A stretch of 41,052 nucleotides of DNA from an uncultured Gammaproteobacteria bacterium (GTDB lineage Bacteria; Patescibacteriota; Microgenomatia; UBA12405), in assembly GCA_964637525.1 (NCBI GenBank), contig CAZWUG010000002.1, forward strand, positions 1-41,052, written 5' to 3'. The notes under the pieces are model-generated. The model was not told the origin of the DNA. It ran no database searches and saw nothing but the letters and a program-made list of their open reading frames with translations. Both the position numbers and the translations under genes were made by a program. Shown here piece after piece: positions 1,122 to 29,700 of this stretch (the stretch's first letter is position 1; the number at the start of each line of letters is the position of its first letter).

Positions 1122-1124
1122 AAA

Positions 1125-3930: not shown

Positions 3931-3959
3931 AACCGTGAATTATTATATAAACTAATCAC

Positions 3960-7210: not shown

Positions 7211-7339
7211 ATTATTATATATATCACAATATATATGAATCTGTCAATTTATTTAATCCAAAATAAACTAGTTTCCGTTATTTTTTTTATTTTCATTTAC
7301 TTAAATATATCCATAGTGGTGTAAAATATACACAATACA

Positions 7340-8802: not shown

Positions 8803-8803
8803 T

Positions 8804-10380: not shown

Positions 10381-10634
10381 TGCCAAAATTTTTTATTATC
10401 ACTATTGCTGCTTGTTTAATTATCCAAATATTCTTTTCCTTTTTCTATTCCAGTCAAATTCTTACTCAAAACAATCAGCTCAACCAAAGTCAAACCGGTA
10501 TCGATCAGTTGACCTTAGAAATAGAAAGCCTTCAAAAACAAGCTGCAGATTTGTCATCAATTAGCCATCTCAATCTTAGCACTCCCTCGGCCTCCTTTAA
10601 ATTTATTAATAAATCGCTAACCATTAACCAATAA
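10380..10634 (+). CDS. FtsL-like small bitopic division protein (assigned by position and architecture)
   Basis: 84 aa with one N-terminal TM helix and then a Q/L-rich coiled-coil-like segment. It sits between rsmH and ftsI, with TAATG overlaps on both sides. Confidence 0.45.
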   Translation: MPKFFIITIAACLIIQIFFSFFYSSQILTQNNQLNQSQTGIDQLTLEIESLQKQAADLSSISHLNLSTPSASFKFINKSLTINQ

Positions 10635-12283
10635 TGTCTCGTTATCGAATTATTCTCACTAGTTTTTTAATTTGTTTTTTTATTATCACCTGCCGACTTT
10701 TTTATTGGCAAGTGATAAAAAGCTCTGAATATGGGCCAAAAGCCACCAATCAAACATATAAAATGAATATTAATAAAGCTACTCGGGGACAAATTTATTC
10801 CTCAGACGAATTTCCATTGGTCGTCAATCAAACCGATTACCTTATCTCTCTCTATAAACCCAACTTAAAAGACGAATTAGAATCAGTTTATCAGCAGATT
10901 GAACAAATTCACCCCAGGTTTATTCAACAAAACCAAATTATTCTAGATTCATTCAAAAACAATAATCAGCAAAAATGGATCGATCTAAATACCCTCTTCA
11001 GTCAAACTGAATCCAGTCAGCTTGCCCAAATTCCGGGAGTTAGTGTCAGTCAACTTAAATCACGTTATTACCCCGAAAACAATCTCGCCAAAAACATTCT
11101 CGGTTTCGTTGCCAAAGATTCTCAAGGCAACTACATCGGTTATGGCGGATTAGAAAGTTACTACAACAAACAATTGCAGGGTAAAACCGGTTTTTCCTGG
11201 GGCCCGCAAGATGGCACCGGAAAAACTATACTAACCAAAAAAAGCTGGCACATTCCAGCTTATGATGGAAATAATCTCTATACTTCAATTAATCGTGCCG
11301 TTCAATATTTAGTTGAACAAACCATTACTCAAGGAGTTGAAAAATATCAAGCCGATTCTGGTTCAGTCAGTGTTATGGAAAGCAGTACTGGCCGAATCAT
11401 TGCTATGGCCAGTGTTGCCGCTACCTCTTCTGCCACTCCCAGTGCTTCAAGAAACCCGGCCATTTCCGATTTATTTGAACCAGGATCAATTTTTAAACCA
11501 ATTATTATGACTATGGCACTAGATCAAAAATCAATTAACCCTGACTTTGTTTGTACCGACTGTTCCCACCCAAGAACCATAGGGGAGTACACCATTGGAA
11601 ATTGGGACAATTCCCTCAACCCGGATTCTACCCTAAAAGACATTATAAAAAATTCCGATAACATCGGAATGAGTTATATCATTACTCAATTAGGTTTAGA
11701 AAATTTCCTTAAATATTACAAGGAACTTGGTCTTAACCAAAAAACCGGAATCGATCTTCAGGGAGAATCGCGACCTATTCTCAAAACCTCTTGGCCGGAA
11801 ATAGATTTAGCCACAGCTTCTTTCGGTCAGGGAATTGTTGTCACTCAAATCAATATGCTTCAATCATTTAACACTATCGCCAATGATGGTCTGTTAGTCC
11901 AGCCAACTGTAGTTGATTACTACACTAATTATTTAAATAATAAATTAATTCCCAAAAAGATCCCGGCCCAACAAGTTTTTTCTCAAAATTCAATTAACGA
12001 AATTAAACAAATCCTCAAATATGCCGTCGAAAATGGAGTTGTCAACCAATTTAGACCCAAAGACCTTGAAGTTTGTGCCAAAAGCGGTACCGCTCAAGTA
12101 GCTGTCAAAGGATCTTACACTGATTCTTCTACTATTGCCTCATATATCGGATTTACTCCATGTAACCATCCAAAATTTACTATGATAGTAACTATAAATA
12201 ATCCCCGGTCATCACCTTGGGGATCAAGCACTGCCGCTCCTGTTTGGTATGAGCTAGCTTCAAAGATTACACGTTTGTTATAA
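10634..12283 (+). CDS. ftsI: Penicillin-binding protein 2/3 family transpeptidase (FtsI-like)
   Basis: N-terminal TM anchor and dimerisation domain, plus transpeptidase motifs SxxK (GSIFKP), SxN (NSDNIG) and KSG (AKSGTAQ). Confidence 0.9.
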   Translation: MSRYRIILTSFLICFFIITCRLFYWQVIKSSEYGPKATNQTYKMNINKATRGQIYSSDEFPLVVNQTDYLISLYKPNLKDELESVYQQIEQIHPRFIQQNQIILDSFKNNNQQKWIDLNTLFSQTESSQLAQIPGVSVSQLKSRYYPENNLAKNILGFVAKDSQGNYIGYGGLESYYNKQLQGKTGFSWGPQDGTGKTILTKKSWHIPAYDGNNLYTSINRAVQYLVEQTITQGVEKYQADSGSVSVMESSTGRIIAMASVAATSSATPSASRNPAISDLFEPGSIFKPIIMTMALDQKSINPDFVCTDCSHPRTIGEYTIGNWDNSLNPDSTLKDIIKNSDNIGMSYIITQLGLENFLKYYKELGLNQKTGIDLQGESRPILKTSWPEIDLATASFGQGIVVTQINMLQSFNTIANDGLLVQPTVVDYYTNYLNNKLIPKKIPAQQVFSQNSINEIKQILKYAVENGVVNQFRPKDLEVCAKSGTAQVAVKGSYTDSSTIASYIGFTPCNHPKFTMIVTINNPRSSPWGSSTAAPVWYELASKITRLL

Positions 12284-12298
12284 TAAATAACCTTTTAA

Positions 12299-13585
12299 AT
12301 GCTCCAAAAACTTAAAAACATCCTCATTCACTTCCCCAAGGCTATTTTCTACCAATACCTATATGGTCAACCATCAAAAAAGTTAACTTTGATAGGCGTT
12401 ACCGGAACAGACGGTAAAACCAGCACCTCCAATTTAATTTATGAGATTTTATTAAAATCAGGGATCAAAGCCGGAGTCATCACCACTATCAATGCCAAAT
12501 ATGGAGACAAAGAAATTGATACCGGGCTACATTTAACCAGTCCCGACCCATCTTTAGTCCAAAAAATACTCAAAGAAATGTTAGATAACGAAGTTACTCA
12601 TGTTGTTTGTGAAGTTACCGCCCATGCTCTTGATCAATATCGTTTTTACGGTTGTTATTTTCAAATAGCCTTGATCACCAATACCTCACACGAACATTTG
12701 GACTATTTCCATAATATGGATAATTATATTAAAACTAAAGGGAAAATATTTGATCAAGCCAAAATAGCCATTTTAAACAAAGACGATCAATCATTTAAAT
12801 ATCTCTCTCAAAAAATGCCTAAATTTATATCATATAGTATCAAAAATAAATCCGATTTTCAGGCAAAAAATATAAAAATAACCCCGGATGAAATGAAATT
12901 TTCAGTCAATCATCTCAATATTATCACCGATACCATTTTTCGTTATCAAATATACAACATCCTGTCCGCTTTAAGCGTAATTTCCCAACTAAAAATTGAC
13001 CCAAAATATTTAATTGAAACTGTCAAAGAATTCCCTTTAATTAAAGGCCGCCGCGAAGAAGTTCAAAATAATTTTGATATAAAAGCTATTATCGATTTTG
13101 CTCATACTCCCAACGCTATCAAAAACACTCTCTCGTCACTTAAAGAAATTAAAAAAGCTAAAATTATTGCTATTTTTGGTGCCACTGGTGGTCGTGATCC
13201 CAGCAAACGCCCGGAGATGGGTTTAGTTACTTCTCAATTAGCTGATATTGCTATCATTACTTCCGACGACACTAGAAACGAAAAAGTAGCAGATATTAAT
13301 AAACAAATAATTAGCGGTATCCCTTCAAATAGTATTTTTATTGAAACAGATAATTTAACCCAAATCAAAAAAATTATTAAAAACAATTCTGATAAATTTA
13401 TTTATTTCAATATCCCTAACCGCCAGGATGCTTTTAATTTAGCTATTAAACTGGCCCAGGCCAAAGATATTGTCATCGCTATGGGCAAAGGTCATGAAAC
13501 CAGCATCCTCCATGGTAACACTGAGTATCCCTGGTCAGAAAGCCAGGCCTTCCGCTTAGCCTTTAATTTAAAAAACAAATCTTAA
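12299..13585 (+). CDS. murE: MurE-like Mur ligase (UDP-MurNAc-L-Ala-D-Glu:diamino acid ligase family) lacking the usual N-terminal domain
   Basis: P-loop GVTGTDGKTS, CEVTAHALDQYRF, TSHEHLDYFHNMDNYIKTKGKIF and ITSDDTRNE (the position of the MurE DNPR motif). The P-loop starts at about aa 34, whereas typical MurE has about 100 preceding residues. In-frame stops directly upstream (taataa at 12284-12289, taa at 12296-12298) exclude a longer ORF. Confidence 0.8.
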   Translation: MLQKLKNILIHFPKAIFYQYLYGQPSKKLTLIGVTGTDGKTSTSNLIYEILLKSGIKAGVITTINAKYGDKEIDTGLHLTSPDPSLVQKILKEMLDNEVTHVVCEVTAHALDQYRFYGCYFQIALITNTSHEHLDYFHNMDNYIKTKGKIFDQAKIAILNKDDQSFKYLSQKMPKFISYSIKNKSDFQAKNIKITPDEMKFSVNHLNIITDTIFRYQIYNILSALSVISQLKIDPKYLIETVKEFPLIKGRREEVQNNFDIKAIIDFAHTPNAIKNTLSSLKEIKKAKIIAIFGATGGRDPSKRPEMGLVTSQLADIAIITSDDTRNEKVADINKQIISGIPSNSIFIETDNLTQIKKIIKNNSDKFIYFNIPNRQDAFNLAIKLAQAKDIVIAMGKGHETSILHGNTEYPWSESQAFRLAFNLKNKS

Positions 13586-13587
13586 GT

Positions 13588-14184
13588 ATGCTTTCATTCA
13601 ATCTTAAACCCAAGGGGACTATTGAAGCAAATTACCATAATGGTTTGCTCCCCCAAAGAAATAAGCCTCAATTTTGGTATCAAGACACCAGTAGCCGATC
13701 TAACTTAAGCAATTTTCAATTAAGTTCAGAAAACCGGCGCATTTTAAATAAAACTCAAGAATTTACCTATGAAATAATCACTCTAACCAATTTCTCTTTC
13801 ACTCCAAAAACTCAAAAACAAATTTTTTCTTGGCTAAAAGAGCTTAACTGGGACTTCCCGATAAGTTCAGTCAAATCAATTTTTACCAACCATATTTTTA
13901 ATTATCTTTATATCTGGAAAGATTCATTTGGAGAAGTTATTGCTTACTCAATTTGTTATTTTTCCAGCTCCATTAGTCATATAGCTTACGTTTTTTACCA
14001 ACCGGAATACAGCCACGGCAACTTACCCATTCGCTTAGTTCTCCAAACTGTCATCGACAGCCATGATAAGGGTTTAAGTTATTGCTATTTAGGCCGTTTT
14101 TCTTCAGACACCGGTTTCTACAAACGCAACATGCCCGGTTTCGAATATTTTAAAGTTAACAAATGGATCAAATATGAAAAATAA
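13588..14184 (+). CDS. Bpt/ATE-like aminoacyl-tRNA--protein transferase-fold protein (ATE_C-like)
   Basis: GEVIAYSICYFSSSISHIAYVFYQPEYSHGNLPIRLVLQTVIDSHDKGLSYCYLGRFSSDTGFYKRNMPGFEYFKVNKW aligns by eye to the C-terminal domain of bacterial Bpt / arginyltransferase (...SAIYTFYDP...SLG...YLYLGY...KMSYK..., from memory). The Cys-rich ATE_N part is absent. It starts 2 nt after the murE-like stop. Confidence 0.6.
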   Translation: MLSFNLKPKGTIEANYHNGLLPQRNKPQFWYQDTSSRSNLSNFQLSSENRRILNKTQEFTYEIITLTNFSFTPKTQKQIFSWLKELNWDFPISSVKSIFTNHIFNYLYIWKDSFGEVIAYSICYFSSSISHIAYVFYQPEYSHGNLPIRLVLQTVIDSHDKGLSYCYLGRFSSDTGFYKRNMPGFEYFKVNKWIKYEK

Positions 14185-14224: not shown

Positions 14225-15601
14225 ATGCATATTCACATTCTTGGCATTGCCGGCACTATGACCTCTCAGTTGGCTGTTGAGTTAAAAAAACAAGGGAATT
14301 TCATTTCCGGATCTGATCAAGAAAAGATATTTCCACCCATTAGTACTATTCTCAAAAAAAACCACATTCCTACAAACAAAGTTGAAATTAGTTCCCAAAT
14401 AAACCTGGCTATCATTGGGTCTTCATACCATCTTTTTAAAAACACTCAAAATGAATTTAACCAAATTAAAAAGCTTAAAATACCCTATATTTCTGCCACT
14501 GAATATGTCAGCCAAAATATCGCCAAGAAAAATTCTATCATAATTGCCGGAAGTTTCGGTAAAACTACTATAACTAGCCTCACTTCCTGGATTCTGTCTC
14601 ACACCAATTTGCAACCAAGTTACATGTTTGGCGGTATTCCTAAAAATAAATTTACCCCCCTTAAGATAAATTCATCTGACTGGTCAATCATAGAAGGTGA
14701 CGAATCTATTCACGGACTAGATAAAAAAGCTAAATTTCTTTATTATCCGGTTAAATACCTTTTGGTTACCGCCGCCGACTGGGAACACAAAGATTCATAT
14801 TCTAGTCAAAATCTCAATTTCAATGCCTTCAAAAATCTGGTCACAAAATTACCTTCAGATGGGTTTTTAATCATTAATCAACAAAAAAACAGCGCTGTTA
14901 AACTCCAACAATACTCATCGGCAAAAGTCATCACCTACAACACCCCCCAATCAAATTATTTTCTAGAAAAAACTATTCGTCACCAAAATTACACTACTCT
15001 CATCATTCATACCCCTAATGGTCTGATAAAACTCAATACTACCCTTATCGGCCAATTTAATTTTGAAAATATTTTAGCCTCAGTCTGTATTTGTGACAGT
15101 TTAGGAATTAACCCACACCTTATTTCTAAATCAGTCTTCTCCTATCGAGGTGTTCGCGGCCGTCTTGAATTAATCACCTCTCTTAAAAATGTTCTTTTTT
15201 TTGAAGATTTCGCCCAATCAAAAGATAGGATATCATCCACCATTAATTCCTTAAAAAATCACTTTCCCAATCATCGGATTAAAATTCTTTTCCAACCACA
15301 CGCTTCTTTTAGCCAATACAAAAGTAGCCTTTGCCAACTTCAAACTGCCTTTGACCAAGCCGACGAAGTGGTTCTAACCCAACTTAAATTTAACCCCAAT
15401 ATAAATAAAAAAAATAGGATTACTGCCAAAGATTTCCGAAACTGCCTTGGACAAAAATTAGTTTATCTTCCTCTAAAACGACAGATTTTAGAGTATTATA
15501 AAAAGAGTTTAATGCCAAATGATATTTTAATTTACATGAGTTCAGGGGGACTTGAAGGCAAACGTATTTTCAAGTCAATCATTAAATCTTTCAAAAAATA
15601 A
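14225..15601 (+). CDS. Mur ligase, Mpl/MurC-like (UDP-N-acetylmuramate:peptide or L-alanine ligase)
   Basis: N-terminus HIHILGIAGTMTSQLAVELKKQGNFISGSDQEKIFPPIS resembles Mpl (HILGICGTFMGG...GSD..YPPMS) more than MurC (GIGGIGMS). P-loop AGSFGKTT. Central and C-terminal Mur ligase domains are present. Confidence 0.75.
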   Translation: MHIHILGIAGTMTSQLAVELKKQGNFISGSDQEKIFPPISTILKKNHIPTNKVEISSQINLAIIGSSYHLFKNTQNEFNQIKKLKIPYISATEYVSQNIAKKNSIIIAGSFGKTTITSLTSWILSHTNLQPSYMFGGIPKNKFTPLKINSSDWSIIEGDESIHGLDKKAKFLYYPVKYLLVTAADWEHKDSYSSQNLNFNAFKNLVTKLPSDGFLIINQQKNSAVKLQQYSSAKVITYNTPQSNYFLEKTIRHQNYTTLIIHTPNGLIKLNTTLIGQFNFENILASVCICDSLGINPHLISKSVFSYRGVRGRLELITSLKNVLFFEDFAQSKDRISSTINSLKNHFPNHRIKILFQPHASFSQYKSSLCQLQTAFDQADEVVLTQLKFNPNINKKNRITAKDFRNCLGQKLVYLPLKRQILEYYKKSLMPNDILIYMSSGGLEGKRIFKSIIKSFKK

Positions 15602-15666: not shown

Positions 15667-16995
15667 ATGTCTAGGTATATCATTAATGGCGGCAAAGAAT
15701 TACATGGTGAAGTTTCCATTCGTGGAGCCAAAAACGCCAGTTATAAACAAATCATTGCTTCAATTCTCAGCGATCAACCAACCGAACTTAGTAACATCCC
15801 AACCATATCGGATGTAAAAATTACTGAAAGTATTGCCAAAAGTCTCGGGGCTAACATCAAATATTGTGGCCAACATTGTCTCAATATCTCTACTCCAAAA
15901 ATTACCAAATCAATAGTTCCCATAGGTACCGGAGAGAAATCACGAACCTCTTTCATGTTTGCCGCACCCCTACTAGCCCGCACCGGCACTGCTATTGTTC
16001 CTATTCCCGGTGGGGATAAACTTGGAGCCCGACCTCTTGATCGTCTTTTCGATTGTTTTTCTCAAATGGGAATTACCACTGAACTTAATGATAGAACTAT
16101 AACTTTCAATACCGACAAAATAAAACCTGTTAATTACACTTTCAATAAACCAAGTCACACTGTTACCGAAACTATTATTATGACTGCCGTTTTTGCTGAT
16201 GGCCAAACTATCCTTAATAATACCGCCTGCGAACCGGAAGTTGACGATCTCATCTCTATGCTAAATAGTATGGGGGCCAATATTCGTCGGGACAATTCCA
16301 ACCCCCAAAAAATCATTATCGATGGCGTTAAGAGCCTTTCTGGTACCAAACACCGAATAATTTCTGATCGAAATGAAGTCGTTACTTTTGCCTGTGCTGC
16401 TTTAACTACCAAAGGTTCAGTTAATATCCTTCATTGTAACCCTGAAATAGTCAAAACATTTATTGAAACCATCGATAAAATGGGTGCAAAAACAATTGTC
16501 GGCAATGATGAACTGAGTGTTTCTTGGGTCAAACCCCTTAAAAATATTGATATTGAAACTGGACCGGAACCTGGTTTTATGACTGATTGGCAAGCTGTTT
16601 TTAGTGTCCTTTTAACTCAAACTGTTGGGCCTAGTTCTATCATTGAACGAGTTTACCCTTCTCGTTTTCAACATATCGAAAATCTCAAAAAAATGGGCGT
16701 CAGGGTGGCTTTTTTTAATCCCCAAATAGATAATCCTCACACTTATTATGAATTCAATTGCGATAGCGACAAACAGGAATATTTTCATGGCGTAAAAATC
16801 TATGGGCCAACCCAGCTAAAACCATCTAATTTTACCGTTAACGATCTTCGGGCCGGGGCTTCAACAGTCTTAGCCGCCCTAACTGCCAATGGTATTTCAA
16901 CTATTGACGGTGTTGAATATATCGAAAGGGGATATGAAAAATTGGGTGAAAGATTATCCGCTTTGGGTGCTAACATAGAATATATAAAAACATAA
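15667..16995 (+). CDS. murA: UDP-N-acetylglucosamine 1-carboxyvinyltransferase MurA (Asp in place of the catalytic-loop Cys)
   Basis: IRGAKNA, PGGDKLGARPLDRL, MTDWQ and NDLRAGAS motifs, 442 aa. Codon GAT 16015-16017 occupies the position of E. coli Cys115. Confidence 0.95.
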   Translation: MSRYIINGGKELHGEVSIRGAKNASYKQIIASILSDQPTELSNIPTISDVKITESIAKSLGANIKYCGQHCLNISTPKITKSIVPIGTGEKSRTSFMFAAPLLARTGTAIVPIPGGDKLGARPLDRLFDCFSQMGITTELNDRTITFNTDKIKPVNYTFNKPSHTVTETIIMTAVFADGQTILNNTACEPEVDDLISMLNSMGANIRRDNSNPQKIIIDGVKSLSGTKHRIISDRNEVVTFACAALTTKGSVNILHCNPEIVKTFIETIDKMGAKTIVGNDELSVSWVKPLKNIDIETGPEPGFMTDWQAVFSVLLTQTVGPSSIIERVYPSRFQHIENLKKMGVRVAFFNPQIDNPHTYYEFNCDSDKQEYFHGVKIYGPTQLKPSNFTVNDLRAGASTVLAALTANGISTIDGVEYIERGYEKLGERLSALGANIEYIKT

Positions 16996-16996: not shown

Positions 16997-18031
16997 ATGA
17001 TTCACTTATACTTAGGGCTTTTACTTTTTTCTTTTTTAGTCACCAGCCTTCTGGTCGTTCCTTTTATCAACCTTCTTTATAAACTTAAATTCCAACGGCA
17101 ACTTCAAAAAACCACTGATTTTCAAAATAAACGAACTCCTATCTTCGACAAATTTCACAACCCAAAAGTGGGAACTCCTGTTGGAGGTGGACTGCTTATC
17201 ATTATTTCAGTCTGTATCCTCTTTCTTATTCTTTTCCCCATTATTAAATTTTCTAAAATCTTTATTTCCGCCAATTATCAGATAGTCCACGAACTATCAA
17301 TTATCTTTTTTACATTTATAAGTTTTGGCTTATTAGGTTTATATGATGATATTTACAAATTTTTTGGCTTCAAACAAACCGGTTTTTTTGGTCTTAAAAT
17401 GACCCATAAACTAATTCTTCAAATCATCCTTGCCGGAATTACCTCTTTTTTAATTTACACCCAATTAAAAATTGATTTTATCTATATTCCTTTTCTGGGA
17501 GCTATCCACCTGGGTTGGTTGTTTATTCCCATAGCCACTTTAATTATTGCCGGATTTGCCAATTTCTTTAACATTACCGACGGACTTGACGGATTGTCCG
17601 GAGGTCTTTTAATGATTGCTCTTTTTGCTTTTTGGTTTCTTTCAAACACTTCACTCGACACTCCCATCTCTATTTTCCTTTCACTTTGGATTGGAGCCTT
17701 AATCGCATTTCTTTATTTCAATATCCATCCTGCTCGTATCATCATGGGCGATGTCGGAGCCCTTTCTTTTGGAGCTACATTTGCTGTTATAGCTCTAATG
17801 TTGGGTAAAATAGTCCCATTTATTATCGTTGGCTCACCCTTTATAGTTGAAGGTTTAAGTAGTGCCATTCAGATAATTAGTAAAAAATACTTTCATAAAA
17901 AAGTTTTTCCCGCAGCTCCGCTTCATCTAACCTTACAAAATATTGGTTGGGAAGAACCAAAAATTGTTGCCCGGGCCTGGTTAGCCGGTATTATTTTAGC
18001 TATTTTCGGATTATGGCTGGGACTAAACTAA
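16997..18031 (+). CDS. mraY: Phospho-N-acetylmuramoyl-pentapeptide transferase MraY
   Basis: Polytopic membrane protein with GLLGLYDD, NFFNITDGLDGLSGG and MGDVGALSFGA motifs. Confidence 0.95.
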   Translation: MIHLYLGLLLFSFLVTSLLVVPFINLLYKLKFQRQLQKTTDFQNKRTPIFDKFHNPKVGTPVGGGLLIIISVCILFLILFPIIKFSKIFISANYQIVHELSIIFFTFISFGLLGLYDDIYKFFGFKQTGFFGLKMTHKLILQIILAGITSFLIYTQLKIDFIYIPFLGAIHLGWLFIPIATLIIAGFANFFNITDGLDGLSGGLLMIALFAFWFLSNTSLDTPISIFLSLWIGALIAFLYFNIHPARIIMGDVGALSFGATFAVIALMLGKIVPFIIVGSPFIVEGLSSAIQIISKKYFHKKVFPAAPLHLTLQNIGWEEPKIVARAWLAGIILAIFGLWLGLN

Positions 18032-18588
18032 TCGATAAGCTCAAACAAGAGGCTGATCATTATCTCAACCTTCCTTACATGATTAATCTTGTCCGTGAAG
18101 GGAAAATTATCAAAGAAAGATTTCTCGGAGGCAAAGGGAACTGGAAAGATATTCAAAAAGAAGTTAAAAGACTCGCCAAAGAAGAGAAAATTAACTTAGT
18201 CAAACTTTCTCCTCAGGAACTTTATAACTTTCAAAAAAAACACAAAATCGGTATTGATTGTTCCGGTTTAGCCACCCAATTACTTATTTTTTATGGTAAT
18301 TTAATCAATAAAAAGGTCACTTTAAATCCCCGAAAAACATCGGCCGAAATGCTTACTTCTGCCCCTTTATCCCAAAAGATTATCGATTTTGATTTGATTC
18401 AACCAGGAGATTTAATCCGTCAAAAAAACGGTAAACACGTCCTGTTTATAACCCAAAAAAGAGGCAAAATAATTGACTACATTGACAGTTCATTCGACAG
18501 CCGCGGAGTCAAATACGGCCAAGCCAACATCTCCGACCCACTTTTTGATAACCAAGGCATCTTCCGGCTTAATCAACTCAGTAATTAA
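18013..18588 (+). CDS. NlpC/P60 (C40)-like cysteine peptidase, no signal peptide
   Basis: KIGIDCSGLATQL (catalytic Cys context) and PGDLIRQKNGKHVLFI (catalytic His context). ATG 18013 (MAGTKLIDKL...) is preferred over the TTG at 17947, which lies deep inside mraY. No hydrophobic N-terminus. Confidence 0.5.
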   Translation: MAGTKLIDKLKQEADHYLNLPYMINLVREGKIIKERFLGGKGNWKDIQKEVKRLAKEEKINLVKLSPQELYNFQKKHKIGIDCSGLATQLLIFYGNLINKKVTLNPRKTSAEMLTSAPLSQKIIDFDLIQPGDLIRQKNGKHVLFITQKRGKIIDYIDSSFDSRGVKYGQANISDPLFDNQGIFRLNQLSN

Positions 18589-18759
18589 TTATTTTTCCTC
18601 TATCAACTCTCTGTATTGCAACGGATCAATTGAAAGAATTTCAATTTCAGTGCCGCACTCCTCACATTCCAAAATATCACCCAGCATCATCCCTTCGGAC
18701 TGTTTAATTTCTTCCCCGCAGTCAGGACAAATTATCTTATTTATTTGTGTTTGTGTCAT
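18589..18759 (-). CDS. LysW-like zinc-ribbon protein (amino-group carrier protein family-like), 56 aa
   Basis: Hand translation of the minus strand gives MTQTQINKIICPDCGEEIKQSEGMMLGDILECEECGTEIEILSIDPLQYRELIEEK. It has a CxxC...CxxC ribbon and a GDILECEECGTEIEILSIDPL core as in LysW/ArgW, but the tail ends EEK rather than EDWGE. It is below the 60-aa ORF-track cutoff. Confidence 0.6.
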   Translation of the reverse strand: MTQTQINKIICPDCGEEIKQSEGMMLGDILECEECGTEIEILSIDPLQYRELIEEK

Positions 18760-18800
18760 CTAAGTAAAAAATATATAATTGCTTAAAGCTAATCCATTAT

Positions 18801-19622
18801 ATGACAAATACACCCTTAGTTAAAATAGATAACTTTTATCTCAAAAGAGAAGATCAAAACATCACTGGTTCTGCCAAAGACCGGGCCATGCCTTTTCAAA
18901 TTGCCAATCTTAAAAAATTAGGTTTCACCCAAGCCGTTATTTCCAGCACCGGCAATGCCGCCATTTCTGCCGCTCATTTTTGCCATGAAAACAATATTAA
19001 TTTAACCATTTTCCTTTCTTCAAATATCTCTCCCTCGAAGTTAGCCGTTTTAAAACAATTTGATCATGAAATTATTTTTTCTCTTCAACCCATTAGTAAC
19101 GCTATAAAATTTTCCAAAGCCAACCACGCTTATCTTTTGCGACAATCTACTGATCCTTCAGCCCTAGAAGGGTATAGTCAAATCGCCCAAGATTTAATTA
19201 CTCAATTACCTCAAACTACCAGCATTTTTATTCCTATCGGCAGCGGTACCACTTTAATTGGTATTTCCCAAAAACTTTCTAAAACAGTTAAAATTTTTGG
19301 CGCCCAATCAAGTGCCAATCCCACCATAAGCAAATTATTCGATGATCAATTTACCCCGGAAAACAGACTAATTACCCATGCTTTATCAGCCAAATTTCTG
19401 CCTCAAAAAAAGGCAGTTATTGAAACTATTAAGGATAGTCAAGGATATTGTTTTACCATCCAAAACGAAGCTATTATTTATGCCGGTTCATATTTAGAAT
19501 CTCAGGGAATAATTACCTCCCTCGAAAGTGCCCTAGCTTTTGCCGCTTATCAAAAAGCCATAAAAAATAATTTTGAAATAGGGGAATACCCTGTTATTTT
19601 ATTAACCGGGACCAAAAGATGA
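18801..19622 (+). CDS. Fold-type II PLP-dependent enzyme (threonine synthase / cysteine synthase-like, PALP family)
   Basis: TPLVKIDNFYLKREDQNITGSAKDRA (PLP lysine context), SSTGNAAISAA, IPIGSGTTLIGI glycine loop, and a C-terminal LESALAFAAY..VILLTGT. At 273 aa it is short for ThrC. Confidence 0.7.
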   Translation: MTNTPLVKIDNFYLKREDQNITGSAKDRAMPFQIANLKKLGFTQAVISSTGNAAISAAHFCHENNINLTIFLSSNISPSKLAVLKQFDHEIIFSLQPISNAIKFSKANHAYLLRQSTDPSALEGYSQIAQDLITQLPQTTSIFIPIGSGTTLIGISQKLSKTVKIFGAQSSANPTISKLFDDQFTPENRLITHALSAKFLPQKKAVIETIKDSQGYCFTIQNEAIIYAGSYLESQGIITSLESALAFAAYQKAIKNNFEIGEYPVILLTGTKR

Positions 19623-20791
19623 TCCAAAAAAATTTTGATATTTTCAACAACTCACCTTATTCATTTTATTTTTTAGTTGTCGACCAATTTTTAGATATTT
19701 CTTTACCTCAACTCAAAAATTTTCATCTAATTTATGCCTCCAAAAATAAAAACCTCAAAAATATTAAAAACCCCTATTTCTGTCTTGAAGAACAGGGGAT
19801 TAAGCTATCAGAAAAAAATAGCGGCAAATTACTTTCCTCCCCAAAAGTCATTGAATATATTAGACAAACTTCAACCGTTAACCACCTTCAGGTAGTCATT
19901 ATCCCTTTTAAACCATCTGCAAAAATTGAATATATTTGCCAACAATTTAATTGGATTAATGCCGCTGTTTCTTCAAAACTTAACCGTTTTTTAGAAGATA
20001 AAAATCAATTCTCCACTTTTTGCCAAAAACATAAACTTCCTATTATTCCTTCATCTTTAGACTCTTTTAATCAGCAAAATTTTCTCAAAAATCAACAAAA
20101 ATTTTCTCAAAAATTAGTTATCCAATCACATTTCGGTTGGGCCGGGAACAGTACTTTTTCTGCCGATAATTGGGATGATATTCAAAATTCTTTCCCCAAA
20201 GACACAAGAGTGAAATTTTCTCCGTTTATTTCGGGGTACTCTCTTACGAACAATTGTTGTTTAACCAAAAAAGGGTTAGTCCAAAGTCAACCGGCACTCC
20301 AACTTACCGGCATTAAACCATTAACTCAAAACCCCTTTGCTACCGTCGGTCGCCAATGGCCGTCAATGTCTCCCCCAAAAGTTACTCATCAACTTTCTAA
20401 AGTTACCTTAAAATTTGCCAAATTAATTAAAAAACTTGGTTATCAAGGATTCTTTGGTTTAGATTTTTTAGTTGACCAAAACTATCAAGTTTATCTACTT
20501 GAATGCAACCCCCGACTCACCGCCTCTTTTGCTTTTTATACCCAATTAGAACTCAACCAAGGGCTATTCCCTTTATTTTTACTCCACCTGGCCCAATTTA
20601 TTAAACTTTCTTCAATCCCCAAATCCAAACAAATTCAACTAAAAATAAACTCGGCTAACATTACCGGAACCGAAATTACTCAAAAAAATAATAGTCGGAC
20701 TATTGCCAAATACCAACAACTCCAGCCGGTTAGCTCTCAAACAAATCCTGTTATTATCCCCCAAAAAATAATCGATCAGTTGCATGGCTAA
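19619..20791 (+). CDS. ATP-grasp domain ligase, unknown substrate
   Basis: LGYQGFFGLDFLVDQNYQVYLLECNPRLTASF is a typical ATP-grasp Mg/ATP-binding C-terminal motif (E-x-N-x-R). It is not Ddl-like or RimK-like by eye. ATGA overlap with the PLP enzyme gene. Confidence 0.7.
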   Translation: MIQKNFDIFNNSPYSFYFLVVDQFLDISLPQLKNFHLIYASKNKNLKNIKNPYFCLEEQGIKLSEKNSGKLLSSPKVIEYIRQTSTVNHLQVVIIPFKPSAKIEYICQQFNWINAAVSSKLNRFLEDKNQFSTFCQKHKLPIIPSSLDSFNQQNFLKNQQKFSQKLVIQSHFGWAGNSTFSADNWDDIQNSFPKDTRVKFSPFISGYSLTNNCCLTKKGLVQSQPALQLTGIKPLTQNPFATVGRQWPSMSPPKVTHQLSKVTLKFAKLIKKLGYQGFFGLDFLVDQNYQVYLLECNPRLTASFAFYTQLELNQGLFPLFLLHLAQFIKLSSIPKSKQIQLKINSANITGTEITQKNNSRTIAKYQQLQPVSSQTNPVIIPQKIIDQLHG

Positions 20792-21950
20792 TTCAAAAAA
20801 AAATTCATTTATCAGTCTTATCTTTATTCTTATTTCAATTGGTTTTACTTTTATTTCCATTTCTTCTCTTACAGAAGCCAACAACACCGCCGGAGACAGA
20901 TTTTATTTTCTCAGAAAACAAGGATTTTGGATTCTTATTAGCCTTGTCGCTTTTTATTTTTTTTCCAAAATTAAACTTGAATTAGTCAAGAAATTCTCCG
21001 GCGTATTTTATGCTTTTTCCCTCATCTGTCTGATTTTAGTTTTAATCCCCGGTTTTAGTAACTCTATTCTTGGAGCCAGGAGATGGTTAAATCTTGGAAT
21101 TTTTAGTTTCCAACCTTCTGAACTTTTAAAACTCAGCTCCGTTATTTACTTTGCCAATTTATTTTCTCAGGATTCAAAAAGAAATTTAACTAATTTACTT
21201 ATCTACCTTATCGGCCCTTTTTTCTTAATTATTTTGGAACCAAATTTAAGCACAGCCATCTTAATATTTACTATTTCAATTTCTATGTTTTACCTATCCG
21301 GTGGCAAAATAATACCAATATTTACTCTCTGTATTAGTTTCATAATTTTAGCTTTTATTTTAGTCGTTACCTCACCATATCGCCTTAATCGCCTTCAAAC
21401 TCTCATCAATCCACAAGAGTCAGAGTCGTCTTATCATAGTAATCAAATAATTCTCTCTCTTTCATCCGGTGGAATTTTTGGCAAAGGCTTTGCTAACTCA
21501 GACCAAAAATACCGATTTCTTCCTAAAATATCAACAGACTCAATTTTAGCCATAATTGGCGAAGAAATGGGATTTTTTGGCATCATCAGCATAATTACTA
21601 TCTACACTTATCTAATTATTTACCTGATAAAAACTTCTTCCCTGATAAAAGACCAATTTTCCTCATTAATTATGGCCGGTACCGCTTGTTGGATTGGTTT
21701 TCAAGCTCTAATCAATATTGCCGCCATTGCCAATATAATTCCCTTGACCGGAGTCCCTTTACCCTTCATTTCCTACGGAGGATCATCATTAGTTACTCTT
21801 ATGGTTGCTATCGGCCTAACTTATAATATCGAAAAGAAATATCGATTATTGGTATACTCTGATTATGACCAAAAGGATACTGCTCACCGGCACTCATCTC
21901 ACCCCCGCCCTAGAACTCATTCGCCAACTCCAACAAGATCAAAAAATTAA
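20784..21950 (+). CDS. ftsW: SEDS-family peptidoglycan glycosyltransferase FtsW
   Basis: Polytopic protein with RRWLNLGIFSFQPSELLKL, DSILAIIGEEMGFFG and PLTGVPLPFISYGGSS motifs, in the dcw position. Its His/Pro/Arg-rich tail overlaps the murG start. Confidence 0.9.
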   Translation: MANSKKNSFISLIFILISIGFTFISISSLTEANNTAGDRFYFLRKQGFWILISLVAFYFFSKIKLELVKKFSGVFYAFSLICLILVLIPGFSNSILGARRWLNLGIFSFQPSELLKLSSVIYFANLFSQDSKRNLTNLLIYLIGPFFLIILEPNLSTAILIFTISISMFYLSGGKIIPIFTLCISFIILAFILVVTSPYRLNRLQTLINPQESESSYHSNQIILSLSSGGIFGKGFANSDQKYRFLPKISTDSILAIIGEEMGFFGIISIITIYTYLIIYLIKTSSLIKDQFSSLIMAGTACWIGFQALINIAAIANIIPLTGVPLPFISYGGSSLVTLMVAIGLTYNIEKKYRLLVYSDYDQKDTAHRHSSHPRPRTHSPTPTRSKN

Positions 21951-26509: not shown

Positions 26510-26785
26510 ATGTCTTCTTCAGCTCAAAAAGATAACTTTACTACTATTAAAACCATTATCGAACGTCAAATAATTAATGTCTTGGATTTTCTTTTTACTG
26601 ATAATCAAATTAATGAAATTGAAGTTGTTCAAGTTTCCCGTTATGTCTTAAAAAATATTGATTCTACTGAATCTATCACTAATCTTTTCAAACAAGTCCG
26701 TCAATTCGTCAATCAATATCCGCTTTTCAAAGATAATCTTTCCCAAACCATTACTGCCTTAAATAAATCCTATGTCAGCCGATAG
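26510..26785 (+). CDS. Hypothetical small protein (91 aa)
   Basis: ATG ORF whose 3' end overlaps the start of the giant gene by 14 nt. No recognisable motif. Confidence 0.5.
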   Translation: MSSSAQKDNFTTIKTIIERQIINVLDFLFTDNQINEIEVVQVSRYVLKNIDSTESITNLFKQVRQFVNQYPLFKDNLSQTITALNKSYVSR

Positions 26786-29700
26786 CATCACTGATATCAA
26801 ACCACCAGCCTCAGAAGTTACTAAACCAAAGACTGAAATTAAAAACAAACCATCGCCTTCATCTGAACATAAATCCACAACTTCAGAACAATTATCTGCT
26901 TTAAGAAAAAAGATTGAGAATATTTTCACTAGAAGAGAATCATCTAACCAGCCACCTTCACAAACTCTTAAAGAATTAGCCGCCACAGAAATTCCCCAAG
27001 ATACCCAAAAACAAGCAGAACCAACCACTGATCAAACTCCGGAAAATAATCCTTCGTCTCCTCAAGAAACTTCACCAGTCAAAAATTCCCAACCAGAAAA
27101 ATCCCCGGAACCAAAACCAATTATTCCTGATACCACCCAACAAGATCAAGCTGAAATCACTCAATTAACTCAAGCTATTCAAGATCTCAAAGAAGAACCA
27201 ACCCCTCAAAACACGGAAACCACTCCGGAAACCCCACCCCCTCAGCTTTTCCCCGACAGGCCCAGTCTTTATGAACAACATCATCAAGCATACGACCGGG
27301 AAAAAAGAACTATTATAGGTGCTTTGGAGCGGTCTGCTCATATCCGGCAACTCAAAAAAGAAGGCATTAAAGATAACACCAAAAAAATCTATGACCAGCT
27401 TCGCTCCAGAGGCTTTTCGGGACACAGTATTATTTGGGGCCTTCACGATTCATCCAAAGAAAAACATATTTATGGGCATAAACCAATGACCTCAGAAGAA
27501 ATAAACCAAGTTTGGCTAGAAACCCCTAAGATCATTGACAGACTCTATTCAGTCAACTACTACTACGACTCCTATCAACCTGACTTCGATTTTCTGTCTC
27601 GCCAAAAACAGATTTTATCTCTAACTGACCAACGGTTTCAGGAAAAACGTCAACAAATCCAACCTCTCTTTTTTTTAGACATATCATCTACACTTAAATT
27701 TTTATCAAATGAAACCAATGATCCCAAAATTGATACTTTCATTACTTACCTTACTTCAGATTTTTTAAACGGGCAAAATAACTCCAAAGATAGCTTTAAT
27801 TCTATACAATATAGTGTCGGTAATATATTAACCCCAACCACCTATAATAATTACAATAATGAATTCGATAACTTTATTAGACTCGCAATTTCGTCAGACC
27901 TTAATCCAGGTCAACCAATTAAAATTCCGGAAGAATTAATTCCCCAGCAAGCAAGGGATTTATTCAATAATGAAAAAGGCGTTGTTCTCTTAACTAGCCT
28001 TCCAGACAGACAACAGCAACGATTTTTAATAGAAAATTACCAAAAGAATCATTCTTCTTACACTCACGATCGCGGTGGAAGAGCATTTTTCAAAGATGGA
28101 ATTCCAACTATTGAATTTTATCGTGAATTTTTATTTTCTACAGAAAACCAGGGCAAAAAGATAACTATACCAGCAAAAACTCTTGCTCTAACCAATGACC
28201 CTAACAAAAGAGCATTCTATCAAAATGTTTCTAATTTAGACAATCCTGAGTTTCAAAAAGTTTGTTTTTTTAACGGATCAGATCCCTACGCTCAATATTT
28301 TTCTGAAACTGGCCAACCAAATGTAAACTTGTTTATCAACTATTATAGAAATAATAAGACTCGAATATTTAACGGTGAGCTACCACACATTTCCGACGAA
28401 CAGTGTTCAAAGTTATCACCAGAAGATCAAAGTAAGCTCAAAATAACTGAATATATTTTTAGTCTGGATCAAAAACTTGGAATGACAGAAAATAGTTTAT
28501 CCTATTTCCTAAGTGACAGCACTTATCCTTTAGAGGCTTTTTTTGATTCAAATAATCAACCAAACTCATTATTCTTTAAAACAATATTTGGTAATTATAG
28601 AGGCTTACTTCTCAATGAAGACCAAACACAATATATTCTTGACATTATTTCAGAAAAGATTAAGACTTTTTCTGACGATGAAAAAGCTCTTTGGAATAAT
28701 ATACTTTCTTTACAAGATATTAATAATAATATTTTAAATTTTATTTTTAAAAAAAGAGACAGTGATCTCACCACACCGTCATATTTTAATAGCGATGGCA
28801 CCCCAAAGGTAGACCTTTTTAAGGATTTAATAAATAATGATACTATTTTGACTCCAGGCTTTCTCCCTAAAAATCTTACTCCAAACGTAATTGCTAATTT
28901 CAATGAAGATACACAACCACTCTGGAAATGTATCTTATTATTGAAAAATCCCGATCAATATATATTAAAAACTATTATTAGTAATAGTGATTTTCATCAA
29001 TGGTTTAACCAAGATAAATTCCCTTCTAGCGCATTATTAATGGATTTATCAGCCGGAAATCTTTTAACACCAGATTTTTTCTACGCTAATTTTACACCAG
29101 ATGTATTAGAATCTTTTCCTCCGGAACAGAAAAGTTTCTGGTTAAATATTTTATCTCTAAAATTTCTCGATAAAAACACGCTTCAATATTTTTCTTCATC
29201 CGAATTTTTTAATAAATATAAAGAATACTCTGATAAAGACACTTCCTTAATATCAAAATTACTTCAAGACGCAATTAGTCATGGTGCCCCAAAAGAATTT
29301 ATTGATGCCAACCTCACGACAGAACTAATAAACAGTCTATCTGATTCGGACCCAAATAAAATAGTTTTTCCATTAATATTAAGTATAGACGATCAAGATA
29401 ATCGAAGGATTGTAGCTCAAAATAGTGAAATTATTGCAAAAGTCTTTAGGTTATCCCCCAACCCACAAGAAACCCTTAATCAATATCTATCAGTTTTTAA
29501 ACAAATAGAAAACTCTCCATCAAAAGAAATACAAAAAATTCGGAGTCAACTCTCAAGAGAAATTATTATTAGTTCTAACCCCCTAGAAACCTACCAAAAA
29601 ATCTCCAATATTTTTATTAAAAATAATTTACCGATGGTAGGTAAGATATACCGAGTTTTTCATACCATTTACCCATCAGAAAAAATCAATGAAATGTTAA

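Follow-up and report, generated by a model that had tools for sequence, protein, structure and literature searches.

In the window, by which we mean the whole 41,052-nt stretch of DNA analysed here, the murD position of the dcw cluster is occupied by a quartet of genes for an NlpC/P60-like cysteine peptidase, a LysW-like zinc-ribbon protein, a fold-type-II PLP enzyme and an ATP-grasp ligase (Table 1). The preliminary description had placed a set of three genes between mraY and ftsW; the placement holds, but the P60 gene had been overlooked. The translation of the small minus-strand ORF agrees exactly with the one quoted earlier, and the spacer before the ATG of the PLP gene at 18801, with its TATATAAT, the GSAKDR motif of the PLP enzyme and the ATGA overlap of its stop with the ATP-grasp start (19619-19622) were verified as well. 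The ATP-grasp gene in turn overlaps the start of ftsW. The small ORF is indeed unannotated in this record, as had been stated, but homologues have been called and named "LysW" by JGI and NCBI. A plus-strand ORF at 18473-18763 is the antisense shadow of this gene. The P60-like protein has 192 amino acids from the conserved Met, the mechanical ORF beginning at a TTG at 17947. As to the flanking genes, the mraY homologues in four related loci (L001-L004) match Pfam Glycos_transf_4, and the FTSW_RODA_SPOVE domain is found in the ftsW genes of homologous loci.

Table 1 Features at and upstream of the murD position in the window
Feature	Position	Strand	Remarks
murE	12299..13585	+	without N-terminal domain; DDTR where the DNPR motif is expected
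ATE_C-like protein	13588..14184	+	198 aa, between murE and the murC-like gene
Divergent MurC/Mpl-like Mur ligase	14225..15601	+	458 aa
mraY	16997..18031	+	ORF; upstream edge of the slot normally holding murD
NlpC/P60-like cysteine peptidase	18010..18588	+	between mraY and the small ORF
LysW-like zinc-ribbon gene	18589..18759	-	56 aa
Divergent spacer	18760..18800		41 nt, contains TATATAAT
Fold-type-II PLP enzyme gene	18801..19622	+	273 aa, PALP match
ATP-grasp ligase gene	19619..20791	+	390 aa, ATP-grasp_3 match
ftsW	20784..21950	+	ORF; downstream edge of the murD slot

Across loci the counterparts of the spacer are mostly 31-46 nt long and keep a TATAAT-like element, and a promoter consensus scan of the window found a promoter-like site (10 of 12 positions) on the minus strand at 18823-18796. 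The spacer probably carries promoter elements that serve the small gene, the PLP-ATP-grasp operon or both.

All four genes are found together in about 170 loci, which come from several lineages of the ultra-small Patescibacteria (CPR). The order mraY-p60-lysW(-)-PLP-grasp-ftsW is kept in virtually all of 80 genomes at species level, even where identity of the ATP-grasp protein falls to 41%, and it recurs in further metagenome lineages. The minus-strand small ORF was found in 75 Shapirobacteria-type loci. Of the 140 loci in which 1.5 kb or more of sequence precedes the ATP-grasp gene, at least 133 have a minus-strand lysW-like gene, an undercount due to insertions in some loci. With a dN/dS of about 0.13 across its last 31 codons, the small ORF is a genuine gene under purifying selection. 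It also accompanies the PLP and ATP-grasp genes into other genomic contexts. This neighbourhood survey, in which the small ORF proved conserved and the genes co-occurred elsewhere, gave no ground for refuting the preliminary description.

The enzymes of the quartet are also found fused to each other. The PLP enzyme is joined to the ATP-grasp ligase in a protein of 782 aa (P0337/P0432, the latter from locus L085), and four clusters at 50% identity (P0354, P0342, P0379 and P0390) contain ATP-grasp::NlpC/P60 fusions with the P60 domain at the C terminus. A divergent LysW-like gene adjoins fused genes of both kinds; among the long relatives with several domains that were examined for domain content, none has the small protein fused to it. 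In one locus (L121), phosphoserine-pathway genes (a SerB-SerA fusion and SerC) are inserted between the PLP and ATP-grasp genes, which points to Ser or O-phosphoserine, rather than Glu, as substrate. This insertion occurs in just one of about 170 loci, and other loci have clearly unrelated inserts in comparable positions.

A profile check of the 56-aa protein against LysW models, as suggested earlier, gave 42.2 bits (E 6e-11) with Pfam PF21344 (Zn_ribbon_LysW), above the curated cut-off of 27, whereas the scores with NCBIfam TIGR01206 (40.8 bits) and NF041070 (30.4 bits) stay under the cut-offs of 53.2 and 75. The family profile matches LysW of Thermococcus (chain 5k2m_E) at 2.7e-11; the match to Thermus LysW (3wwl) is stronger but inflated, because a Thermus sequence was part of the alignment. 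The four Cys of the zinc ribbon (two CxxC pairs) are invariant. By these matches the globular domain of the small protein is homologous to that of LysW, and in this respect the LysW/ArgW carrier pattern seen in the preliminary description stands. It does not extend to the tail, the class of the ATP-grasp ligase or the downstream enzymes, and for the same reasons membership in the characterised LysW/LysX system is ruled out. The protein has a net charge of about -10 and ends in ...YRELIEEK. The difference from EDWGE noted earlier is general: (E)EEK is near-universal across lineages, and no DWGE tail was seen among ~140 sequences. Only two of these, which come from all lineages, lack a terminal Lys: L116, which ends EEKG, and L118, where the ORF lacks the EEK end. 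LysW bears its substrate on the γ-carboxyl of a terminal Glu; in the small protein, the proposed site of attachment is the terminal Lys or else the Glu at -3. As described before, equivalents of LysZ, LysY, LysJ and LysK are missing among the window ORFs scanned; the genes called in L001-L004 and L085-L093 include none either.

The ATP-grasp protein matches ATP-grasp_3 (E 1.6e-8) and reaches 88 bits with PRK06524, whose cut-off is 684; a profile search recovered 2008 relatives. Among PDB folds an AF2 model (pLDDT 94) is matched best by biotin carboxylase, PurK and PurT, with a TM of about 0.6 and 10-16% identity; LysX and Ddl are not among the best 50 Foldseek matches listed. RimK, rimK_fam and LysX_arch gave no match at E<=0.1, and the Ddl model TIGR01205 gave 13.8 bits against a cut-off of 245. 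The ligase belongs to an uncharacterised "PRK06524-like" ATP-grasp family; by family scores and Foldseek it is neither an ordinary Ddl nor an ordinary PurK or PurT; a confident score as one of these had been named as an outcome that would speak against the preliminary description. It is also not a MurD replacement by kind, since it has no Mur_ligase domains and a true murD coexists with it in sister lineages. We propose it as the loading enzyme. The D-aspartate ligase Aslfm, an ATP-grasp, acylates the ε-amine of Lys, and biotin-carboxylase-type ATP-grasps work on a Lys-borne swinging arm; for the family found here we know of no precedent for joining a substrate to a Lys side chain.

The PLP enzyme matches PALP with an E value of 2e-42 and carries Lys26 within GSAKDR. 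The NCBIfam models of ThrC, CysK and IlvA all score far under their cut-offs (TIGR00260, 37.9 bits against 167; PRK08329, 112 against 358). The top Foldseek matches of an AF2 model (pLDDT 90) are threonine synthases (TM 0.88). Nevertheless, the enzyme lacks the N-terminal segment of ThrC, and the ThrC motif NSxNPxR aligns to RQSTDPSA, with no Arg at the phosphate-binding position. A function as threonine synthase was therefore rejected despite the ThrC-like fold; to judge from sequence and fold, the enzyme is a paralogue derived from threonine synthase, and we propose it as the modifying enzyme of the pathway. A profile search against the PDB gave similar scores for Fn1220 (62.5 bits), threonine deaminase (59.7) and ThrC (59.6), and about 45 bits for serine racemase. 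The PLP enzyme is thus no closer to racemases than to β-replacement enzymes, which speaks against D-Glu chemistry.

Of the P60-like family, 31 of 36 members match Pfam NLPC_P60 (PF00877; best E 1.4e-6), the window protein alone giving E 0.079; comparison of the family with canonical and fused P60 domains by hhalign gave a probability of 94.8% (E 5e-8). Cys84, in GIDCSGL, and His143 are invariant, and the protein has no signal peptide. It is predicted to be cytoplasmic and is our candidate for the release hydrolase. A carrier pathway needs a release step, which this peptidase would supply; NlpC/P60 enzymes such as YkfC cut γ-D-Glu-Lys/DAP bonds.

The link to peptidoglycan synthesis and the murD slot is stronger than originally claimed, because murD lies inside the module in sister lineages: 20 loci have the order p60-murD-lysW(-)-PLP-grasp, which either stands alone or is framed as mraY-p60-murD-lysW-PLP-grasp-ftsW, and the MurD proteins of L085, L086 and L131 are above the TIGR01087 cut-off. 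In the window's own lineage murD is missing from the locus. Adjacency to murD could in part reflect inherited dcw gene order. MurE of the window scores 351 bits with TIGR01085 (cut-off 257), the match beginning at model position 75. The MurC/Mpl-like ligase reaches 221 bits with the murC model TIGR01082 (cut-off 335) and 173 bits with mpl, whereas the MurC proteins of murD-containing lineages reach 450-460 bits on the murC model. The gene between the two codes for a protein with hits to Pfam ATE_C (E 9e-4) and to NCBIfam arginyltransferase models (E about 1e-5), all under the cut-offs; it resembles arginyl/leucyl-tRNA-protein transferases and is possibly an accessory part in lineages lacking murD. 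ATE_C is fused to MurC in L087 (52% identity, 3e-68), L113 and L153, and the MurC proteins linked to ATE_C are below the MurC cut-off with an almost equal Mpl score. The ATE_C-like gene (71 loci) and murD (20 loci) never occur together.

From the homology of each part, the strict co-occurrence of the four genes, the pairwise fusions, the invariant tail and the embedding in the dcw/murD context, all of which are established, we infer covalent loading, the residue of attachment, the identity of the amino acid, its epimerisation and the specificity of the P60 enzyme. The ATP-grasp ligase would spend ATP to load the zinc-ribbon protein, on its flexible acidic tail, with an amino acid, the ThrC-like PLP enzyme would alter the tethered residue, and the cytoplasmic P60 peptidase would free the product and restore the carrier. 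The γ-carboxyl of L-Glu may be linked to the ε-amine of the invariant C-terminal Lys, which would leave the α-amine free, as a PLP enzyme requires. The tethered L-Glu would then be epimerised to D-Glu, and the P60 enzyme, which belongs to a family that typically cuts γ-D-glutamyl-diamino-acid bonds, would release the D form only. Ser and Asp racemases are fold-II PLP enzymes, and so is a Ser/Thr-dehydratase-like protein with Glu racemase activity. If true, MurD would be supplied with D-Glu by a one-way route driven by ATP. That the four genes form one carrier-type pathway in peptidoglycan precursor synthesis, tied to the MurD step (position 2, D-Glu), appears rather probable to us; that D-Glu chemistry takes place on the carrier is doubtful in itself. 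To the load-modify-release pathway with D-Glu chemistry, taken as a whole our best explanation, we would assign a probability of roughly 0.4. A murI in module-carrying genomes, if present, would lessen the need for a second route to D-Glu.

As murD is not at the locus in the window's lineage, a supply for MurD requires either a murD elsewhere or a variant that bypasses MurD. MurD is regarded as universal in peptidoglycan-making bacteria. Nevertheless, a bypass is thinkable because ATE_C and murD never share a locus, ATE_C::MurC fusions exist and the ATE_C-linked MurC proteins score almost as well with Mpl. In the lineages without murD, stem residues 1 and 2 would then not be added by MurC and MurD: D-Glu would be formed while tethered by its γ-carboxyl to the terminal Lys of the carrier, the ATE-like aminoacyl-tRNA transferase, whose family targets N-terminal Glu/Asp, would put L-Ala on the free α-amine, the YkfC-like P60 enzyme would free L-Ala-D-Glu, and the divergent MurC/Mpl-like ligase would join it to UDP-MurNAc in one piece. 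Such a carrier-protein- and tRNA-dependent route around MurD is a long shot.

The PLP enzyme might instead be a β-replacement enzyme that leads to a diamino-dicarboxylic acid for position 3, the substrate of MurE. It would form aminoacrylate from Ser or O-phosphoserine, which would be attacked by the ε-amine of the terminal Lys of the carrier (or by a tethered Cys or Lys) to give a lysinoalanine- or lanthionine-like DAP surrogate; P60 would clip off the modified C-terminal residue, and the ATP-grasp ligase would put Lys back on the -EE end, much as tubulin-tyrosine ligase and RimK append residues to -EE tails. The enzyme is indeed ThrC/CysK/SbnA/Fn1220-like, and its best PDB profile match, Fn1220, is the Fusobacterium lanthionine/H2S enzyme; however, the PDB scores do not separate the enzyme types. 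The serine genes within the module of L121 would fit, but unrelated inserts sit at similar places in other loci. The terminal Lys is invariant and preceded by acidic residues, yet the EEKG end of L116 would block a cycle of Lys re-addition. The DDTR of MurE keeps the Arg of DNPR, a hint that the substrate carries a distal carboxylate, and CPR bacteria, to our knowledge, generally lack the DAP pathway; against this, the stand-alone units of the module hold murD and not murE. Altogether we consider this route unlikely.

Decidedly unlikely, in our view, is that the zinc-ribbon protein is no covalent carrier but a subunit with a structural or regulatory role, or else a pseudo-substrate in which -EEK mimics the γ-Glu-Lys of the stem peptide, with the three enzymes acting on free amino acids or UDP-MurNAc-peptides. 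Covalent loading is a prediction, the tail is not the EDWGE of LysW, the partner ATP-grasp is not like LysX, and the enzymes are fused to each other while the small protein takes part in no fusion among the long relatives examined. But a reactive end would be expected to show just such near-absolute conservation of the final residue in a flexible tail, the logic of carrier, ATP-dependent loading, PLP step and peptidase is known from LysW and CysO/CysM/Mec, and the small gene accompanies the enzymes into every genomic context.

A MurT/GatD-like change of the α-carboxyl of D-Glu (by amidation or by coupling to an amine or amino acid), in which the ATP-grasp ligase would activate the carboxylate of the MurD product and the PLP enzyme, as a Ser/Thr ammonia-lyase, would give ammonia, is hardly probable. 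It would agree with the neighbouring murD, with the PLP::ATP-grasp fusion, which recalls an amidotransferase architecture, with the serine-pathway genes in L121 and with threonine and serine dehydratases among the best PDB matches, but it leaves a carrier-like protein with an invariant tail and a P60 peptidase without a role.

The preliminary description had also considered that the module replaces supply genes of the ddl/alr type, the ATP-grasp ligase and the PLP enzyme standing in for Ddl and Alr and giving a D-Ala-D-X dipeptide for MurF. Ddl itself is an ATP-grasp, and the cluster of the window and its Shapirobacteria relatives contains no ddl, alr or murF; however, canonical ddl (Dala_Dala_lig_N/C) and murF share the cluster with the module in seven related loci (L091, L098, L101, L103, L112, L113 and L119), which, along with the Ddl model score and Foldseek matches given above, makes this very improbable and already largely refuted. 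That the small gene is a stray paralogue from the canonical lysine/arginine pathway of LysW is scarcely credible: the zinc-ribbon domain is homologous and JGI and NCBI call homologues "lysine biosynthesis protein LysW", but the protein stays under the TIGR01206 cut-off, ends in EEK instead of EDWGE, has no LysX/RimK-type partner and no LysZ/LysY/LysJ/LysK among the window ORFs scanned or annotated neighbour genes, and the module always lies amid cell-wall genes.

Compared with known systems, the load-modify-release pathway proposed here is reminiscent of LysW/ArgW (Thermus, Sulfolobus, Thermococcus; AmCP of Streptomyces) in the CxxC...CxxC zinc ribbon with a flexible acidic tail, the presumed ATP-grasp loader, the presumed releasing hydrolase and the order of loading, modification and release. 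However, the tail closes with (E)EEK and its invariant Lys, where LysW has EDWGE and its terminal Glu, the ATP-grasp resembles biotin carboxylase/PRK06524 rather than RimK/LysX, a single fold-II PLP enzyme stands in place of kinase, reductase and fold-I aminotransferase, the hydrolase is an NlpC/P60 cysteine peptidase and not the M20 metallohydrolase LysK, and the context is the Patescibacteria dcw/murD cluster rather than lysine or arginine biosynthesis. In CysO-CysM-Mec+ of Mycobacterium tuberculosis, too, a small carrier protein is activated at the expense of ATP, its C terminus reacts in a fold-type-II PLP active site and a dedicated peptidase frees the product; but CysO has a ubiquitin-like fold with a GG thiocarboxylate, is activated by adenylation (MoeZ) and is served by a JAMM metalloenzyme, and the product is cysteine, with no link to the cell wall. 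The glutathionylspermidine synthetase/amidase GspSA combines an ATP-grasp with a papain-like amidase (CHAP/NlpC-P60 superfamily) in one polypeptide, as do the ATP-grasp::P60 fusions, and makes and breaks one kind of amide bond; its domain order is reversed, its substrates are small (glutathione, spermidine), and it has neither carrier nor PLP enzyme. MurD2/MurL of Xanthomonas is likewise a non-canonical solution for D-Glu beside a murD-type gene, but there MurD2 puts L-Glu on the nucleotide precursor, where MurL epimerises it, without carrier, PLP enzyme, ATP-grasp or peptidase. YkfC, a γ-D-glutamyl-L-diamino-acid endopeptidase of the NlpC/P60 kind that cleaves Glu-Lys/DAP isopeptide bonds in the cytoplasm, and Aslfm, which uses the side-chain carboxyl group of acidic D-amino acids to acylate the Lys ε-amine, parallel the proposed P60 and ATP-grasp steps; they resemble the module proteins in sequence at the superfamily level only, and their substrates are peptides or precursors of peptidoglycan rather than the tail of a protein. 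In the literature searched we found no description of this carrier system. Apparently the module has not been described before, and it looks like a new carrier-protein route feeding peptidoglycan precursor synthesis.

The 56-aa minus-strand ORF of the preliminary description and its translation were both correct on re-reading of the sequence, as were the 41-nt spacer containing TATATAAT, the GSAKDR motif of the 273-aa PLP enzyme and the ATGA overlap of its gene with that of the 390-aa ATP-grasp protein. The small ORF is a real gene. It is present at the equivalent minus-strand position in 75 related loci, its product is 65-98% identical to 38 database clusters (Pfam LysW domain in 38/38), and its dN/dS is about 0.13, as calculated from the last 31 codons with synonymous sites near saturation. 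The plus-strand ORF of 96 aa at 18473-18763 is the antisense shadow of this gene. At one related locus (L089, 6880-8004; L numbers denote related genomic loci), the public gene call runs the PLP ORF through the antisense frame and hides the LysW-like gene; such over-extended calls erase the small gene in some annotations. The LysW-like identity proposed for the protein stood at the level of the Pfam zinc ribbon (42.2 bits, curated threshold 27, E 6e-11) but not at that of the NCBI LysW equivalog models, both cut-offs of which were missed (40.8 vs 53.2 and 30.4 vs 75). Homology to LysW rests on the Pfam match and a match to 5k2m; a match to 3wwl was set aside as circular, the Thermus sequence being part of the profile.

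Compared to LysW of Thermus, the tail of the small protein is about five residues shorter and lacks EDWGE. In every lineage its end is (E)EEK preceded by a hydrophobic residue, as in ...ELIEEK, ...PLEEEK, ...LINEEK and ...VEEDK. The terminal lysine (Lys56 in the window) is kept in almost all of the about 140 sequences, and the glutamate at the third residue from the end is nearly as constant. Exceptions with respect to the lysine are L116, where the protein ends with EEKG, and L118, where the ORF has no EEK end at all; in L120 (EVEK) and L153 (YVQK) the lysine is kept and the preceding acidic residues are altered. A last residue that (nearly) never changes in a flexible tail is what would be expected of a reactive end.

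A fourth gene, not discussed in the preliminary description, lies between mraY and the small gene, and in most loci the 3' ends of the two abut or overlap. Read from a conserved methionine (18010), its product has 192 aa. The cysteine in GIDCSGL and a histidine are invariant in the family, 31 of 36 members match Pfam NlpC/P60 (best E 1.4e-6), and profile-profile comparison with canonical P60 domains gave a probability of 94.8%. Against PDB sequences the profile found no significant match (Spr/MepS at E of about 0.5). Because of the invariant Cys and His, the NlpC/P60 matches and the absence of a hydrophobic N-terminus, the product is predicted to be a cytoplasmic papain-like peptidase.

The predicted structure of the PLP enzyme (pLDDT 90) finds its best structural match in threonine synthases (TM 0.88, 22% identity), and relatives in other lineages keep the N-terminal motif of ThrC. 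The enzyme scores far below the cut-offs of all curated ThrC, CysK, IlvA and SbnA models and lacks the phosphate-binding arginine of the ThrC motif NSxNPxR; with the family profile, the scores of Fn1220, threonine deaminase and ThrC differ by 3 bits at most. In profile and fold searches for the reaction type, ThrC, CysK, Fn1220, IlvA and serine racemase scored almost alike, and therefore no assignment can be made. The enzyme belongs to a distinct ThrC-derived subfamily, the reaction of which is not readable from sequence. The ATP-grasp protein (predicted structure with pLDDT 94) resembles solved structures in a generic way only (biotin carboxylase, PurK and PurT; TM about 0.6, 10-16% identity), and its sole sizeable family match is the uncharacterised model PRK06524 (88 bits, cut-off 684). 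Judged from these comparisons, it is neither a LysX/RimK nor a Ddl enzyme. Matches to MfnD, LdmS and archaeal Ddl were weak, partial and restricted to the nucleotide-binding motif.

The genes around the module are those of a division and cell-wall (dcw) cluster, and murD, murF, murB and ddl were not found within the 41-kb window. The GC content of the window is about 35%, and, to judge from the names on close homologues, its source is a bacterium of the Patescibacteria (CPR), of the Microgenomates/Shapirobacteria type. Many MAG records with a Patescibacteria-type dcw cluster (L006-L009 and others) are titled 'uncultured Gammaproteobacteria bacterium', which looks like a labelling error at the source. 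Upstream of the dcw cluster (72-5888), genes for a glycosyltransferase, a sugar nucleotidyltransferase and Bac_transf proteins are followed by one for a 642-aa DUF4012 protein, probably a cell-surface polysaccharide locus. An ORF of 1526 aa (26772-31352) has no Pfam match at E<=0.001, nor has the 91-aa ORF that precedes it. The domain missing from the MurE of the window is the N-terminal UDP-binding domain, its match beginning at about model position 75-90; its conserved DDTR stands where DAP-type enzymes have DNPR.

Features of the dcw cluster in the window
Feature	Coordinates	Remarks
mraW	9505-10380	dcw cluster
ftsI	10634-12283	dcw cluster
murE	12299-13585	passes TIGR01085; without N-terminal domain
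ATE_C-like gene	13588-14184	between murE and murC-like gene
murC-like ligase	14225-15601	
murA	15667-16995	
mraY	16997-18031	
p60/lysW/PLP/ATP-grasp region	18010-20791	
ftsW	20784-21950	
murG, short ftsQ-like gene, ftsA, ftsZ		3' of ftsW

Among species-representative genomes, 80 loci were found, with ATP-grasp identities down to 41%, and essentially all that reach far enough have the order mraW-ftsI-murE-ATEC-murC-murA-mraY-p60-lysW(-)-PLP-grasp-ftsW-murG-ftsQ-ftsA-ftsZ, ATEC being the ATE_C-like gene. An exhaustive profile search yielded 2008 relatives of the ATP-grasp protein (P numbers), including longer natural fusions of PLP enzyme and ATP-grasp (P0337/P0432, 782 aa) and of ATP-grasp and NlpC/P60 (P0354, P0342, P0379, P0390); one of the fusion proteins carries the NCBI label 'Patescibacteria group'. 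Around the fusions, around distant relatives and in 80 further metagenome loci, a divergent LysW-like gene is found immediately 5' of the PLP gene, and it is present in at least 133 of the 140 loci that have enough upstream sequence. At L090 a more distant relative (P0385) is found within an unrelated gene set, and therefore the association is bounded within the wider ATP-grasp family. The genes there (2075-10930) encode 7TM_transglut, ATPgrasp_ST, MATCAP, FGase, a Ddl_C-like protein and GNAT, LysW-like and PLP genes are absent, and the set may be a separate peptide-modification system. The upstream gene of L093, considered as a Mur ligase, is not one.

The loci fall into two types. In type A, found in the window and in several further lineages, the module occupies the slot between mraY and ftsW, in which murD normally lies, and there is no murD within the locus. 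In type B the order is p60-murD-lysW(-)-PLP-grasp. These loci, drawn from metagenomes, lie within the dcw cluster in L131 and L147 (mraY-p60-murD-lysW-PLP-grasp-ftsW) and are otherwise stand-alone five-gene units in other surroundings (L122-L146, L085 and L086). Their MurD scores above the TIGR01087 cut-off of 212 bits in L085 (258), L086 (228) and L131 (243), and below it in the stand-alone units L122 (167) and L136 (174). The joint occurrence of the five genes at sites away from the dcw cluster speaks for a functional link between the module and the MurD step; part of it could be due to an inherited gene order. Type-B modules also admit seemingly unrelated inserts: an EamA transporter with a Trp-repressor-like gene (L122, 8037-9434), an HD protein with an Orn/DAP/Arg-type decarboxylase (L131, 3617-5681) and a nucleotidyltransferase with a NUDIX protein (L144, 4815-6318).

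The ATE_C-like gene, which is similar to arginyl/leucyl-tRNA-protein transferase genes, lies 5' of the murC-like gene (71 loci) or forms a fusion with it (L087, 1331-3268, 52% identity, E 3e-68; L113; L153). murD is absent from all 71, as judged within the loci, and none of the 20 loci with murD has the ATE_C-like gene. MurC from the murD lineages is canonical (450-460 bits with TIGR01082, cut-off 335; 183-200 with the Mpl model). All MurC proteins linked to the ATE_C-like gene are below this cut-off (221-292 bits) and score nearly as well with the Mpl model (173-254). Since the ligase of the window is among the latter (221 and 173 bits), whereas its sister MurC proteins reach 450-460, a changed substrate is suggested. 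The pattern also suggests that the first steps of stem-peptide assembly are rewired in type-A lineages, as seen in loci that are short and phylogenetically non-independent. That these lineages go as far as bypassing MurD by means of a carrier protein and tRNA is quite improbable.

We propose, with a probability of roughly 0.6, that the P60-like, LysW-like, PLP and ATP-grasp proteins form a carrier-protein pathway of peptidoglycan precursor synthesis that is tied to the MurD step. The acidic zinc-ribbon protein with its reactive tail would be the carrier, the ATP-grasp enzyme, as an ATP-dependent carboxylate-amine ligase, would load it, the PLP enzyme would modify the load and the cysteine peptidase would release the product. 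The LysW (with LysX and LysK) and CysO/CysM/Mec systems are established examples of such loading, modification and release, and glutathionylspermidine synthetase/amidase is a case of an ATP-grasp enzyme coupled to a papain-like amidase. Fold-II PLP enzymes require a free alpha-amine on the substrate; therefore, either an amino acid would be tethered by a carboxyl group or the carrier would be the nucleophile of a beta-replacement. In the first case, the gamma-carboxyl of L-Glu would be joined to the N-epsilon of Lys56, the PLP enzyme would epimerise the tethered Glu and P60 would stereoselectively free D-Glu. We prefer this chemistry, tentatively and at less than even odds, because of the free-amine constraint, the link to murD, the invariant terminal lysine and the usual specificity of NlpC/P60 enzymes for gamma-D-glutamyl-diamino-acid bonds. 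A motif scan for MurI and Alr gave no match in 173 loci of up to 10 kb around a gene, which is uninformative for stretches of this length.

The main rival is a beta-replacement with Ser or O-phosphoserine on the terminal lysine or a tethered residue that would give MurE a DAP-like diamino-dicarboxylic acid. The ThrC/CysK/Fn1220-like nature of the PLP enzyme and the arginine kept in the DDTR motif of MurE speak for it, but the stand-alone units contain murD and not murE. An insertion at L121 (1933-4940) would also fit: the PLP and ATP-grasp genes there are separated by genes for a SerB(HAD)-SerA(2-hydroxyacid dehydrogenase + ACT) fusion and for a class-V aminotransferase similar to SerC. Genes of serine biosynthesis are uncommon in CPR genomes; however, they are found in this single locus, among several unrelated insertions elsewhere. 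The earlier idea that the ATP-grasp protein stands in for Ddl was not borne out, since a canonical ddl shares the cluster with the module in some type-A lineages, as do murB and murF (L091, L098, L101, L103, L112, L113, L119).

Peptidoglycan precursor synthesis is among the best-mapped and most drug-targeted bacterial pathways and, by the current view, every cytoplasmic step of it uses free amino acids and Mur ligases. If the proposed carrier pathway is correct, the protein-tethered step would be a novelty there, and one conserved over much of the Patescibacteria. Because the parts are four small soluble proteins, the hypothesis is directly testable in vitro, and the uncultivated hosts are no bar to this. 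A literature search found no description of the module. Public annotations name its parts 'lysine biosynthesis protein LysW', 'threonine synthase' or 'threonine dehydratase' and ATP-grasp protein, and the LysW, threonine synthase and dehydratase labels mislead metabolic reconstructions of CPR.

LysW-type carriers are known from lysine and arginine biosynthesis and from secondary metabolism of Streptomyces; the proposed pathway would extend them past these settings, and its tail, which has Lys in place of Glu at the very end, would represent a second chemistry. The globular domain of the small protein is a homologue of LysW, but the module departs from the LysW/AmCP family in four of the defining features tested: its equivalog score is too low, its tail differs, its ligase is not of the LysX type, and Z/Y/J/K enzymes were not found among the scanned ORFs of the window or the called genes of related loci. 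It would therefore work like an AmCP system outside the characterised AmCP family, and what is new within carrier-protein-mediated amino-acid chemistry is the tail, the enzyme set and the biological setting.
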